This document shows, in pieces, positions 51,001 through 63,000 of a stretch of DNA of 64,000 nucleotides. Position numbers: made by a program. The stretch is from Escherichia phage PA52, in the sequence record KP682392.1; one strand, given 5' to 3'. The stretch's first letter is position 1. Each line of letters begins with the position of its first letter.

Positions 51001-54000
51001 AAACAGATGGCGGCGCAACAGAAAGCGCAGAACAAGCAGAATATCGGTACGGGCATTGGTACGGGGGCGGCTATTGGCGCATCCGTTGGTGGTCCTGTTG
51101 GTGCTGTTGCTGGAGCAGTAATTGGCGGCATTGCTGGTTCTTTGTTTTAAGGAGTGGTGAATGAGCGGATTTGCACAGGGGTTACTTGCCGGATTCAGCA
51201 CCGTTGACCAGGCAATGACCCGTCGTAAGGAGCTTGGTCTGCGTGAAGCACAGCTTGCCCGGCAACAGAAAAATAACGAGCGCGATTTTGAGTTTGCGCA
51301 GTCTCAGTTTGAACATAATAAAAACGTTGATCAGCGGAACTTTGATTACAGAGCCAAAGTTGACGACCGTAATTATGCACTGAAGGAGAGGGAGTTTAAC
51401 GCTAACCAGAATTACCGGAATGCGTCACTGGGTATGGAGCAGCAGCGACTCCAGTTGCAGAAATACAACCAGCGACGGCTTGAGTATAACGATATGATTG
51501 CCCATAGCCAGCCACTAATGGAAGCGCTTGGAAAAGCAATTGAGGCTGGCGATCAGGAGGCTGCAACGCGTCTGTTCGGGCAGCTGCCAAAGGGACATCC
51601 ATTAATTCTTATGTCAAACGAAGGCTATGCAGCGAAAGCGGGTCAGGCCGTGATCAACCTGCAAAAAATCTTTGGTGATAAGCCGGACATGGCGATCGAT
51701 TCGCTGAATACCCCGGAAAATCTCGATGTGCTTTCCGGCGTGTTTGCCCCGGAACTACAACAGCGTATTGGCATGCCTGATTCAACCGGGGACAAAACGA
51801 TAAAAGAGGCCAGGATTGGCAGTATCGTACCAGCGCAGCAGGAAGGGTACGTACTTATTGGCCTTGATCTCACATACAGCGATGGCTCCACCGCGCATAA
51901 ACCTGTAACAGAATACGGCAGTGCGCACCCTGATGATCAAACCGTGCTGGCGATACCCGTTGATAAGGCTATCGCTCAGGTCAGGGATCGCAGCAAATTT
52001 GCAGAGATATCGAAAAATTATGGTTATTTTATGCCGAAGCAGCAGGGACTTTCTCTGAAAGAGCTTCAGAAGGGGGCCAGCAACGTAGCGGCGGACGCGA
52101 TCAAGAATGGCGGTAATGCTCAGGCTGCGGTGGATGAATATTATGCTGCGACTGGTTCACAACCGCATCAACAGAAAATTCAGCAACAAAAACTTCAGCA
52201 ACAGGTTATCAACTGGGCGGGAGATGATCCTGATAAGCTGTCATTTGCCAGAAATGTAGCGGCCCGTCAGCCTGAAATGCTGGAACCTCAGAATCAGAAA
52301 TTGCTGGAGAACGGGTATGCGAATTTTCTCCGTATTCAAAAGGCCAGGGGGGAACAGGCCAGAGATGAAAGTGCTTCATCTGCATCTCAGTTTATCCGTG
52401 GACTGAAACAGAATTACGCCCAGTAATTCACGATATTCCATTAATACCATTTCCTGATGCCCGGCCATTGTGCCGGGTTTTTTTATGGAGTCTGTATGGC
52501 CTATTCAGAGGAACAGCGTCCTGAGGCGCAACTCGGTAACCAGAATCGTAACAGCCTGAACATTCAGCAACCCGGCGAAACTGACAGCTATGAAGCATTT
52601 TTCTCTGATCCGAATCGCTGGAAGGATAACAGTACGTCGTTCAGCCTGGGCGATGTATTGCCAACAATGGGTAAAGGTTTCGCCCAGTCCGTCCGGGGAA
52701 CAGGGGAAATGGCCCGTGGACTCGGTGATGCGATGATTCAGAGCCCGGTAAAAACAGGGGCGCGTATTTTAAATGAGTTCAGCCGTATGGGGCTGCCGGG
52801 TGTCGCAACTGTGCAGGATATTTTTGCCGGTGGCAGCAGGGGGGCTGATGAGGTCATCGATACCCTGCCTGATGGCAAAAACGCGGTTACTGATACTGTC
52901 GGTAAAGGTCTGAAGGCAACCGGTAAGGCTGTCAGTGATGGTGCCAAAGCCACTGATGAATGGCTGACCGGTAAGATGTCGCCGGGTGCAGTTCGTGCGC
53001 TGAATACGCCGATGACCGAAGGCTATAATGATTCTGCGGTCTGGGTGGCGAAGGGTGTAAACCTGATTGGTGCGCTTGTACCTGATATGGTTGCTGGCGG
53101 TGTGGCTAGAAAGGTGGGTGATGTCACACTGCGAAAAATGCTGACCGCCGGGCTGGAGAAAAAATACATCGCGGCAGGGATGCAGCCGGAAAGAGCCACG
53201 GCACTGGCAGCAGAAGCTGTCGATAAAAAAATGCCGGATTTATTCCAGGCGGGCCTGATCACCCATTCCACTGTAAGTGCACAGGGGCAGAGTGCAATGG
53301 CGGCAGCAGATGCTGTTCTTAATGCTGATTACTCTGAGCTGGCGCAGTCACCGAAATTTCAGCAGACGTTTTTGTCCATTGACGCCGACCCGCAGCACGC
53401 ACAGCTTACTGATCGCCAGAAAATGGATCTGGCAAAAGAGCGTGTTGCCGATGAGGTGCGCGCGCAGCTGGCAACCGATCCTGAATTGCTGGCTGTGAAT
53501 GCCATGGCGGCAAAACTGGGTGACGCACAACTGTTTAATCTGGTGACACGAGGCACAGCGAAGACCGTTAAAAGCGGCATTGTCAGAAATGCCACGGAAC
53601 AGGGGGCGATTAATGCGGCGCAGGGCGGCTATTCACGCTATCAGGAAAACACGGCATTGCGTGAGACCGCCGGAATGGGTGTGTCACCGTGGGAGGGCGT
53701 GGCTGACGCAACGATCGAAGGTGCAGCCTTTGGTGCTGCGATGGGGGCTCCATTCGGTGCGGTTGCCGGATATCGTGGCAGACGTCAGGCCGCAGAAGAA
53801 ACCGCCATGCGTGATGCTGAAACCGTGCAGCAGGACGACGCAGCCCCGCAACCAGAATCTGTTGATCCGGTGGCGCAGCAGCGTGAATCCATGCAGGGCA
53901 TGAATCGCGAGCAGCTTCTGGAGCAGTATGCTGATGCGGATATGGCAACAGAGGGTGACGCATCCGCAGCTCATCGCCGGGAAGCTGCCAGCCAGTTGTT

Positions 54001-60000: not shown

Positions 60001-63000
60001 AGAGTACTGGAGTATTCCTCTGCCTTACGGGTACAACGTTTTCTTCCTGCTCGGGCATACTGCTGAAGGTGTGGCGGCGGGTGACCTGACGGCGTCCCGT
60101 GCTGCCGGTAATGTTGTTGGTGGTGTGCTTGGTGCATTCAGCCCGATTGGCAGTGAGACGTCGGAAACACTGTCCGGGGCATTGCTGAAAAATGCAGCGC
60201 CGACCATTCTGCGTCCGTTTGCGAACCTTGCCATGAATGAAAACTTCATGGGGGCGCAGATTTACCAGGAGAACATGCCGTTTGGTACACCAAAACCTGA
60301 CAGCCAGCTGGGAAGACGTTCAACGCCAGAAGCGTACAAGGCGTTTGCATCCTGGCTGAATGCGTTCTCAGGTGGCAGCCAGTACCGTCCCGGCGCGGTG
60401 GATATCACACCGGAATCGCTGAAATTCTGGATTGACTATATCTCCGGAGGGACAGGGCGCTTCATTTCCAAAACCACGGATGCGGCGGTGAAATCGCTGA
60501 ATGGTATTGATATACCGGAACAGCAGGTGCCCTTCCTGGGGAAAATTTCGGGGGAGGTGATGCCGTATGCAGACCAGCAGAAGATGTACGACCGGATGAC
60601 AGAGATTGCGCAGTATCACGCAGAGCTGAAGAGTCTGACCGGTGCAGAAAGAACGGCGTTCATTGACGAGAACAACGGAAAATTGTCGATGAACGGGCTT
60701 ATGCAGGATACCCGGAAGAGACTGAAGGATTTGCGTAAACAGCGTGATGCCATTTACGCCGACAGTACTCTCAGTCTGGCGCAACAGTCGGCGATGGTGA
60801 AATCGGTAGAGCGGGATATGAAAATTGCCGTGGATCGGTTTAACCGCGAGTACAACAAAAAAGTGGGAGTGGATTAACAGAAATGGCCCCGTACGGAAGT
60901 GCGGGGCTGATTAAGAAATAAACACTCATTGACCTGTAATAACCGGAGCTATTAACATATAGTCAGAAGAGCATTTCATGTGATACAGAGAGCCGATTTA
61001 TGTTTAATGAAGAAAAAGTTGCGCAAATGGCAGCGTATTTGCTGAAAAAGCATGGCGGATCTATGCGTTTCATTAAGCTGAAGCAGCAACGGTAATGGCG
61101 AATAGCATTTATGAGCAAAATAATCTTGATATGTTATTAGGCGATCTGATGTAACCGGGATGATGTTCACCCCTTATCGCCGGGGAACAATACCGGCAAT
61201 CAGAATTGCGGATGGAACTATTCAGGCCCACGATGATATCGATGAGGAGTTTTTTCAGCCAGTATTGGATGGCTTTCTTATATCCAAATATACGCCATTT
61301 GACATCCTCCACGCCCTGAAGGACGGGGTTTTACAGCGCACCGGATAAGATTCGGTGTTTTGTTGAAAAATACTGTGATAACAAACAGAAAACCCGTCAG
61401 TAAGACGGGCTTAGCAAGCTGGGACGGTTACTTTAATAATTTCAGTGCCTTTACATCCACTTCAACACTGCTCAGGTCTTTATCAATTTCACCCTCAATT
61501 CTTACTTTGTCTTTCGGAGAAACATTCTGACCGGCCCATATGCTGTCATCGATATCCGTGACAATTGTCCCGCTATTGTCACGAAACTCATAACGTTCAT
61601 CACCCACTTTTTTAACGATGCTCCCTTCAAGGATAACCCATGCATCATCCTTCAGTTCTTTTGCCTGCGCTACTGTTGAACGCTCTGCTTCAGGCCCTTG
61701 GAAACCGCCCTGCTGTGCAAAAGCGCCAAAAGACACACCAGAAATAAGTGCTGCAATCAATACCTTTTTCATTCATAGTCCTCTTTCAGAGATGAACATT
61801 CAAACAGCATTTTCAGTATGGTAAAGCGCGGGTGCGTTGAGGATGCCTGACACATCAGAGGTGGCGGGAGATTACTCCCCCGCTTGGTCTCTTACTTCTC
61901 AGATTCGTAGTCTACGAAGACAGCGACCTCCGTCTGACCGGTTCGGATTCGCACCTCGCAGAGGTCTTTCCTCGTTACCAGTGCCGTCACTATGACGGTT
62001 AAACAGATGACGATCAGGGCGATTAACATCGCCTTTTGCTGCTTCATAGCCTGCTTCTCCTTGCCTTTCGGCACGTAAGAGGCTAACCTACATGTGTTCA
62101 GCATGGATTGAGCCTCAGATTAATGTTAAGCGTCTTGCCGGACGCGTAATGTTAACTGGGGCTTTTCTCTATCTGCCGTTGGTGTTCATGCCCGAGGCAG
62201 ATAGCCTCAAGCACCCGCAGCAATTCTACTTAACTCTCCTTTTCCCGCAAACCGTTTTTATCTCCAGCGACAAATCGAATACACAACCAGCACCACCGCC
62301 ATTACTGTTCCTACATTTGCGAATGCTTCAGGCCAGGTCATTGATTCACCTTCTGCTCAATATTTTTAAGGTCATTTTCCGCATACAGTATTGCAGTTCT
62401 TGCTGCCCGCAACCGTGCTTTGGTGTTCTTTTCTTCACGCTCGAGGCTGGCAACAGATTCTCGGAGCTGATCGTGTCTGTTATGAAGCTGTCTAATCTCT
62501 CTCACCACAGCCTCACCATCGTTCGCACACCGCAGAACATACTGAAAAGGGTCCACAACACATCCGCACTGCAAGCACAGGATAACGTGATCCTGTTCAT
62601 GAACCTCAATGGCCCGATGCTTACAGCTCTGTTGTGTGTAGTTTTTTCTGCCAGTTACTGTAATGTTCAGCAGCTTCTCTTCATCGCGCTTTGGCTGCAC
62701 CAGTGTGATGATATTATCGCCTTCATTTTCCATCAGTTCACCTCCTGCGGCGGTTCTGGTAGCGGCATCCAGTGTGACGGTTTCCACGACGCACCAGGAA
62801 TTATCCACCCATCATTAGCGTCAGGATGCCCCGGGATGTAAGTCGCCCACTTCATTCGCCAGTCACCTTTCCTGTCAAACTCCACGGCAACAAGAACGGC
62901 TGTTTTGGTATCCGGCATTCGCTCACTACAACTTATCCAACCATCCGGAGTTACCGGAGAGTTGCCAGACAGCGCATTCTGCAACCGTTCCAGCTTAACG

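Follow-up and report, generated by a model that had tools for sequence, protein, structure and literature searches.

The window analyzed here, a stretch of 64,000 nucleotides from Escherichia phage PA52 (sequence record KP682392.1), carries near its end a giant open reading frame (ORF) that corresponds to ORF80 of the Shiga toxin (Stx) phage Sp5 and is called ORF80 below. Our analysis suggests that the ORF80 product is probably the Sepvirinae member of a group of cysteine-free giant polyvalent virion proteins with a proposed ejection and delivery mechanism. In 933W-, GP4-, and Bcep22-type podoviruses, according to sequence and gene order, such a protein appears to be the product of the final large gene in the morphogenesis operon. 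From the N to the C terminus, its predicted layout comprises a Gly/Ala-rich module, a low-complexity spacer, a swappable effector cassette, and a constant module of ~900 residues. The putative cassette consists of LPD5, a CLCA_X-type HExxHxxD metallopeptidase, an HExxxH...E metallopeptidase, and a PBECR/MuF_C ribonuclease (RNase)-like domain. Earlier publications already cover the protein, the class to which it belongs, and the two variants of the peptidase. What is new is the delimitation and confident modeling of a 908-residue constant module without a solved analogue, the correction of the second peptidase motif to HExxxH, the family-wide near lack of cysteine, a correction of the label given to MuF_C, and the lack of support for an ATPase.

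ORF80 and its constant C-terminal module

The ORF80 protein has been studied in other Stx phages, and Sp5 ORF80, phi24B gp47, VT2-Sap73, and the 933W orthologue are the same protein, encoded likewise at the end of the late operon and made up of identical Pfam domains. Mondal et al. (2016) deleted Sp5 ORF80/ECs1242, an "unusually large protein of 2,793 amino-acid residues," and found it to be essential, with complementation rescuing the deletion; the mutant heads looked normal and were filled with DNA but were tail-less, as they bound no tail-fiber antibody (PMC5155283). The protein was consequently classed under tail assembly, and an ATPase was guessed from a match to COG1483 (PMC5155283). More recently, phi24B gp47 was reported to be abundant in virions by mass spectrometry, and its authors listed LPD5, LPD1, LPD38, and MuF-C in the protein and proposed that it is an encapsidated ejection protein (bioRxiv 10.64898/2026.04.10.717836, 2026). 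The "polyvalent proteins" of phages and conjugative elements, along with the domain families found in ORF80, had been defined by Iyer et al. in 2017 (PMC5512222). An earlier note on this DNA, made from the sequence alone, had likened the product to the giant multidomain virion proteins of short-tailed phages that are ejected with the DNA. Since the same protein had already been published as such, this interpretation re-derived the current view from raw sequence, and it agrees with the phi24B work, where ejection is likewise a proposal.

The reading frame is open on the + strand from 52457 to 60877 (2806 aa), and translation from the ATG at 52496 gives exactly 2793 residues with no internal stop. 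This ATG is preferred because GGAG sits 5 nt 5′ of it and because the other in-frame ATG, at 52457, lies within the stem of a terminator hairpin and is not conserved, LC616032, a divergent Stx phage, having ATA in its place. RefSeq begins the protein (VT2-Sap73) at ATG 52457, yielding 2806 aa, under the product name LPD5 domain-containing protein; the ArgO145 annotation uses the downstream ATG, and a length of 2811 aa is given for gp47 in the phi24B preprint (bioRxiv 10.64898/2026.04.10.717836). The 2793-aa ORF of the earlier note is real and intact, and no other large gene follows it in the late structural operon, but the start assigned to it, 52460, belongs to the terminator, given that ATG 52496 is the best start. 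The surrounding 8.5 kb of DNA (52400-60900) is 100% identical to Enterobacteria phage VT2-Sakai (Sp5), as well as to the Stx1-converting phage of strain Morioka V526 and many "PA" phages, and the region is present at 90-100% identity in 185 phage records, all from Stx or Stx-like phages. The divergent copies in LC616032 (2791 aa) and ArgO145 (2792 aa) are also intact. Synonymous differences exceed nonsynonymous ones in most of the differing 200-aa bins, the others being bin 801-1000 in LC616032 and three ArgO145 bins with one or two changes. Divergence among the Stx phage copies is patchy, which points to recombination, and amino acid identity reaches its minimum (0.854) at aa 401-600.

The C-terminal module was the most widely shared part of the protein. 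Its structure model (pTM, 0.87) was helical and non-enzymatic-looking and had no analogue in the PDB, and PHROG profiles of other giant proteins covered aa 1843-2791. A tblastn search with aa 1900-2793 matched Vibrio phages of ~60 kb (41%), "Methanosarcina virus MetMV" (28%), the Ralstonia phages Dimitile, Claudette, and p2110 (~27%), Burkholderia phage BcepMigl (~27%), and, as a partial match, the Bacillus phages Page and Pascal (22%), with each match corresponding to the C terminus of a giant protein of 1679 to 4658 aa. In six phages, i.e., that of ORF80 and five others, the giant gene comes last or nearly last among the large genes of the structural block. When ORF80 was compared by BLASTP with five phage giants, aa 1886-2791 was the only segment common to all; it was shared over ~870-900 aa in four of them and over aa 1896-2423 only in Bacillus phage Page. 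The Vibrio giant additionally shares the N-terminal module and the HExxxH domain with ORF80. What precedes the module varies: BcepMigl gp16 carries SLT (aa 79-178), an Eco57I-type methylase, helicase C, and PBECR1 ahead of LPD38, and metagenomic proteins with this module carry ART-PolyVal, PBECR1, MuF_C, zeta toxin, PRTase, RadC, or methyltransferases just upstream of it. Full-length relatives were obtained from a search of cluster representatives; the other homologue search returned matches of at most ~1,600 aa, many of them partial.

Two database entries with this module call for separate mention. The gene P0216 ("LPD38 domain-containing protein," 981 aa, GCA_036960915.1 contig 10001-12946) encodes little beyond the C-terminal module, and its surroundings contain an integrase and early genes with no Pfam-recognised structural genes nearby. 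These surroundings look like a decayed prophage, so that P0216 is probably what remains of a truncated gene and not a module that naturally stands alone, and it was not used as evidence. The MetMV protein (MK170447.1, 2545-11553; 3002 aa), whose last ~830 aa are 28% identical to the module, is recorded from an archaeal virus, whereas the module otherwise comes from bacterial podophages; its host assignment or gene history thus deserves scrutiny.

ORF80 has two of the features by which polyvalent proteins were described, namely several unrelated effector and LPD domains in one polypeptide and a location among late or virion genes. It resembles them in its giant multidomain form, its virion-gene neighborhood, and its LPD5, LPD1, MuF_C/PBECR, and LPD38 domains, and it holds both zincin-like variants described there, one with a His in strand 2 and an Asp three residues after HExxH and the other with HExxxH (PMC5512222). 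The main text of that paper makes no mention of Stx phages, nor does it single out the ~900-aa C-terminal module as a constant unit. Among the close published counterparts are the "DarB-like" giants of Bcep22-like and GP4-like phages (Bcep22 gp75, JC1 gp69, and BcepMigl gp16), which occupy the same genome position and share with ORF80 the C-terminal module (~27% identity over ~890 aa), a PBECR domain just upstream of it, and the absence of cysteine. Among them, JC1 gp69, from a Burkholderia phage, was detected in CsCl-purified virions by mass spectrometry with 51 unique peptides. Their cargo differs, since they carry an SLT transglycosylase, an Eco57I-type methylase, and a helicase where ORF80 has LPD5 and two predicted metallopeptidases instead. 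As ORF80 is devoid of the methylase, helicase, and SLT cargo, the label "DarB-like antirestriction" does not transfer to it; the phrog_10089 match covers only aa 2351-2681, inside the shared C-terminal module. The virion RNA polymerase of N4 (gp50) is likewise a giant, head-packaged, and injected protein with a metallopeptidase, and its C-terminal region is needed for encapsidation (PMC5512222), whereas ORF80 matches no polymerase family. Kinship with it was rejected, the sole link being a weak phrog_2206 match (E value, 0.006; aa 235-623), and tblastn searches with aa 101-450 and aa 1900-2793 returned no N4-like phage. As for ejection proteins of the T7 gp16 type, no lytic transglycosylase match was found in ORF80, unlike in its relative BcepMigl gp16.

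Not a single cysteine was found among the 2793 residues of ORF80. The giants of BcepMigl (4658 aa), Vibrio (3066 aa), Dimitile (4545 aa), and Page (1679 aa) also have none, and that of MetMV has three. Among relatives of at least 1000 aa, 105 of 127 lack cysteine and 122 of 127 have no more than two, and an alignment of 84 C-terminal module sequences contained 24 cysteines in 100,814 residues. This avoidance may reflect selection against disulfides in proteins that would thread, unfolded, through a narrow channel and the oxidizing periplasm. The passages of the cited papers that we consulted do not mention it.

Three proteins encoded just upstream on the + strand, at 49784-50440, 50443-50889, and 51161-52426 (218, 148, and 421 aa), are likewise free of cysteine and match no Pfam family; the count covers these three of the four proteins encoded there. 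The 421-aa protein is the essential ORF79, and the cysteine-free upstream proteins may be further internal or ejected proteins. The fourth, an 83-aa ORF lying between them (50899-51150, + strand), is called "bacteriocin" in RefSeq, has sub-threshold matches to glycine-zipper and class IIc bacteriocin families, and looks like a small Gly-zipper membrane peptide within the structural operon. A "homolog of a bacteriocin" in the phi24B virion sample was dismissed as a contaminant by the authors (bioRxiv 10.64898/2026.04.10.717836).

Domain layout, predicted metallopeptidases, and MuF_C

The features of ORF80 and of its immediate upstream region are collected in Table 1, in which all Pfam domains lie above their gathering score.

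Table 1. Features of ORF80 and its upstream region in the PA52 window
Feature	Coordinates	Strand	Residues	Basis or remarks
Intrinsic-terminator-like hairpin and T-run	52459-52485	+		Terminator scan, centroid fold; stem 52459-52465/52472-52478, loop CATTGT
Shine-Dalgarno GGAG (52488-52491) and preferred start ATG (52496-52498)	52488-52498	+		Read from sequence
Giant ORF (ORF80)	52496-60877	+	2793 aa + stop	Sp5 ORF80/ECs1242, VT2-Sap73, phi24B gp47 (PMC5155283; bioRxiv 10.64898/2026.04.10.717836)
N-terminal conserved module	52976-53719	+	~161-408	BLASTP, PHROG; Gly/Ala-rich, moderately hydrophobic segments
Low-complexity spacer	53813-55495	+	~440-1000	Composition (Pro/Gln/Glu/Arg-rich); most variable part among Stx phages
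LPD5	55646-56095	+	1051-1200	Pfam PF18799, E value 6.5e-45
Predicted metallopeptidase module 1, CLCA_X type	56039-56815	+	1182-1440	HEWFHSLD 56345-56368; invariant His aa 1263
LPD1	56576-56815	+	1361-1440	Pfam, E value 1e-23
Predicted metallopeptidase module 2	56903-57535	+	~1470-1680	H1551-E1552-x3-H1556 at 57146-57163; E1607 at 57314-57316; E1614
MuF_C, PBECR-type predicted RNase fold	57743-58012	+	1750-1839	Pfam PF18819, E value 1.3e-17
C-terminal constant module	58151-60874	+	1886-2793 (908 aa)	Holds LPD38 and hydrophobic helices aa 2442-2469 and 2515-2551
LPD38	59921-60538	+	2476-2681	Pfam; inside C-terminal module

The N-terminal module shares 28.5% identity with aa 126-372 of Vibrio phage D62_0021 (BLASTP), phrog_37568 matches aa 170-439, and the tiles spanning aa 201-500 are common to ~40 of 149 giant relatives. 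Composition confirmed both the Pro/Gln/Glu-rich linker (aa ~440-900) and the Gly/Ala-rich, moderately hydrophobic stretches that the earlier note had described, the latter at aa 180-208, 402-425, 2442-2469, and 2515-2551. No family matched the spacer in window scans of the domain libraries. An overlapping-window domain search of the kind that had been proposed, run with ten windows of 400 aa, contributed no significant family beyond the four Pfam domains (LPD5, LPD1, MuF_C, and LPD38). Searches by sequence against solved structures gave nothing significant for the whole of ORF80 or for profiles of the HExxxH domain, the C-terminal module, and the CLCA_X-like domain, and the PADLOC defense and anti-defense models did not match ORF80. 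The former view that the domain content is largely uncharacterized is only half true: the activities of the domains are predictions, but computational work of 2017 had already delineated the four Pfam domains and the two peptidase clades.

Two HExxH motifs, HEWFH at aa 1284 (56345-56359) and HEIIH at aa 1551 (57146-57160), were confirmed in the translation at the positions given previously. Shuffling the protein 2000 times gave 0.03 such motifs on average, and the probability of finding at least two was 0.0005. The first motif lies in a module that matches NCBIfam family NF041907 (CLCA_X) over aa 1182-1437 with an E value of 2.1e-43, covering model positions 3-245 (243 of 250). The score of 148.6 bits is under the whole-protein cutoff of 260, so that family homology is clear and equivalence is not. 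In 27 relatives, and again in a further alignment, H1284, E1285, W1286, H1288, L1290, and D1291, as well as the upstream His (AAAHYE), are invariant, and the C-terminal half of the module apparently corresponds to LPD1. CLCA_X was described as the sister group of the CLCA_N zincin domain, mostly borne by phages and plasmids, often in proteins of >1000 aa, and characterized by HExxH...D (Lenart et al. 2013, PMC3650047; NF041907). ORF80 shares this motif, although CLCA_X makes up only one domain of its 2793 aa and its Asp follows the second His by three residues (HExxHxxD), as opposed to the HExxHxxxD given in the paper.

The second motif proved to be of another type. An exhaustive HMMER search with aa 1445-1750 retrieved 419 cluster representatives, mostly proteins of 1,500-6,000 aa along with some solo proteins of 210-270 aa. 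When these were aligned, 159 of 161 sequences had His at H1551 and all 161 had Glu at E1552, whereas H1555, the second His of HEIIH, is His in 61 of 161 and the adjacent H1556 in 145 of 161. Downstream, E1607 is Glu in all 164 sequences and E1614 in 149 of 164. Among the 159 readable members, 152 have HExxxH, six have HExxHH (the Stx group), and one has HExxH. On this basis, module 2 is assigned by sequence to the HEXXXH clade of zincin-like metallopeptidases described by Iyer et al. (PMC5512222). Structure prediction of this region, one of the checks suggested earlier, gave a zincin-like fold in the AF2 model. The proposal of zincin-like modules at both motifs consequently stands in that both belong to conserved families, and is amended in that module 2 is of the HExxxH...E rather than the HExxH type. 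The change of register leaves the Glu proposed for catalytic mutagenesis unchanged: the predicted catalytic residues are E1285 and E1552, with H1284/H1288/D1291 and H1551/H1556/E1607 as the respective predicted ligands. Aligned with each other by hhalign, the two modules showed a weak similarity (probability, 12.5%; E value, 0.0023) in which two strands and the HExxH helix were matched. For the polyvalent class as a whole, a peptidase role in polyprotein processing has been proposed (PMC5512222).

MuF_C scored 64.2 bits against a PF18819 cutoff of 27.6, and K1745, H1752, and S1816-Y-G are conserved in 48 non-redundant relatives. PBECR was described as a predicted RNase fold similar to barnase, EndoU, colicin E5, and RelE, in a definition that includes MuF_C, with active members having a His in the N-terminal part and a Ser or Thr near the C terminus (PMC5512222). 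Following this description, H1752 and S1816 would form the active-site configuration of active members. Since both Pfam and Iyer et al. define a PBECR RNase-type fold, MuF_C is not a peptidase, and the "Muf-C metallopeptidase domain" of the phi24B preprint conflates two things. The ORF80 domain is likely an active RNase-type domain that was mislabeled as a peptidase.

Late operon and surrounding prophage

The earlier note had placed an intrinsic terminator ~12 nt upstream of the giant ORF and had taken it as a sign that expression depends tightly on Q antitermination. A GC-rich hairpin (GCCCGGC-CATTGT-GCCGGGT, 52459-52478; seven pairs, six of them GC, with a 6-nt loop) followed by a T-run is present, ending 11-12 nt before the start codon, and the centroid fold of the region consists of this hairpin alone (-13.6 kcal/mol). 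Both hairpin and T-run are kept in LC616032 and ArgO145, where the surrounding intergenic region is only ~80-89% identical. In ArgO145, substitutions in both arms of the stem have turned one G-C pair into A-T, and G-C stands in place of the closing G-T pair; such compensatory changes, by which pairing is kept, indicate that the element is under selection. The terminator is nonetheless not special to ORF80. The 30-50 kb part of the late operon contains 33 terminator-like sites, compared to 19 ± 4.5 in shuffled sequences, and at least five other strong + strand hairpins were found in the operon, among them those of 7-9 pairs at 35549, 37952, 38392, 48883, and 49742. Control specific to ORF80 was therefore discarded. 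Passing late-operon terminators requires Q-modified polymerase, and with many of them in the operon, dependence on Q is a property of the operon as a whole. The pR′ leader RNA (Rfam STnc100) at 23582-23787 places ORF80 ~29 kb downstream of the late promoter. Several of the terminator-like hairpins at 30001-50000 (+ strand) come after moron-like genes such as lom.

Compared to Sp5, only the context of ORF80 differs. In the present prophage, an IS629/IS1203 insertion sequence (IS) of 1310 bp (44058-45367, - strand) splits a tail gene into 42837-44057 and 45368-45853. The interrupted gene, a VT2-Sap63 homologue of 567 aa cut after nt 1221 with a 3-bp duplication, corresponds by annotation order to Sp5 ORF70/ECs1232, one of the essential tail genes. 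This prophage copy is thus probably unable to make tails, though its ORF80 is intact. The IS junction was found in none of the phage records, and among 5426 complete E. coli genomes only those of cattle strains 111 and 112 have it. Rfam ALIL pseudoknots, the frameshift element of the IS3 family, were also detected at 19550-19666 and 26521-26637 (- strand) with scores identical to that of the third copy, indicating three copies of the same IS in the prophage.

The small RNAs of the prophage are as expected for Stx phages. Rfam and ARAGORN together found a sok antitoxin next to a hok/gef-like gene, AsxR, STnc100, isrK and C4 antisense RNA, the lambda cIII thermoregulator, and tRNA-Met, -Arg, and -Arg; the small-RNA and tRNA coordinates are 62042-62216 (-), 23789-23841 (-), 23582-23787 (+), 17165-17363 (+), 7898-7956 (-), and 21925-22176 (+).

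Proposed function and alternatives

In the account that we consider probable, the constant C-terminal module would be the structural part of ORF80, bringing the protein into the head and being needed for completion of the tail. At infection, release of the tail needle would allow the protein to exit in a largely unfolded state via the portal-tail channel, either before the DNA or together with it, and its amphipathic Gly/Ala-rich helices could help to form or extend a conduit spanning the envelope. The two predicted zincin modules might then cut the polypeptide itself or host proteins, freeing effector domains in the cell, where MuF_C may act as an RNase. Capsid location, ejection, membrane insertion, autoprocessing, and all enzymatic activities are parts that we infer. 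Several observations weigh against this account: ejection of ORF80 is a proposal, and the only genetic phenotype is a defect in tail assembly; the lack of tail-fiber binding in the Sp5 mutant is unlike the behavior of P22 and T7 ejection-protein mutants and would fit an assembly role equally well; and gp47 has no assignable density in the phi24B cryo-EM map (bioRxiv 10.64898/2026.04.10.717836).

The main rival, favored by the Sp5 phenotype, is a purely structural or assembly role, in which ORF80 would mainly serve the portal-tail junction as a scaffold, plug, or ruler, or would act in assembly as an energy-using enzyme of the kind envisaged by Mondal et al., with secondary enzyme-like domains and no part as an injected carrier. 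Besides the DNA-packed heads without tail-fiber binding (PMC5155283), it is consistent with the suggestion of the phi24B authors that internal tail contents may constrain tail orientation and with the fact that the conserved part is a 900-aa helical module of non-enzymatic appearance. However, an AAA+ ATPase as guessed from COG1483 (PMC5155283) is unsupported because ORF80 contains no Walker A motif ([AG]xxxxGK[ST]) and no ATPase family match in Pfam or NCBIfam; the orthologue is not in the resolved portal-tail model of phi24B; and swappable effector domains and extreme cysteine avoidance are hard to explain in this manner. We therefore regard a purely structural protein as unlikely. Another alternative, raised with the "MuF-C metallopeptidase" of the phi24B preprint, is that the metallopeptidases degrade the peptide cross-links of peptidoglycan so that the ejection conduit can cross the wall. 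Podophage ejection proteins often do have a wall-degrading domain, as illustrated by the N-terminal SLT of BcepMigl gp16. Nevertheless, MuF_C is of the PBECR RNase type (PF18819; PMC5512222), the actual zincin clades have been tied to polyprotein processing and also occur in proteins of conjugative elements that act in the cytoplasm (PMC5512222), and no lysozyme, SLT, M23, or DD-peptidase was matched in ORF80 by Pfam or window scans, while relatives needing a wall enzyme carry SLT. This makes a role in wall degradation quite improbable. Finally, chance occurrence of the HExxH strings, or a long ORF created by assembly or fusion, deserves practically no credence and is already refuted: both motifs sit in deeply conserved families with invariant His and Glu, the ORF is intact in the 185 phage records and in the divergent relatives with mostly synonymous-dominated bins, and the protein was detected by mass spectrometry.

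The delivery account can be extended, and here we are more tentative. Judging from its structure model, the C-terminal module may be a structurally new, self-contained delivery chassis onto which interchangeable cassettes are hung. As such, it would dock the protein in the head, be needed to finish the tail, and refold into part of a trans-envelope conduit, and it would be used by podoviruses of the 933W, GP4, Bcep22, Vibrio, and Bacillus Page types. For the short-tailed Stx phages, which spread Shiga toxin genes, ORF80 represents 13% of the genome, and the phi24B authors themselves ask how a polypeptide of 300 kDa is kept in the capsid and gets out of it. If the chassis interpretation is true, these giants would amount to a counterpart of polymorphic toxin systems that is carried by virions and whose constant part is C-terminal.

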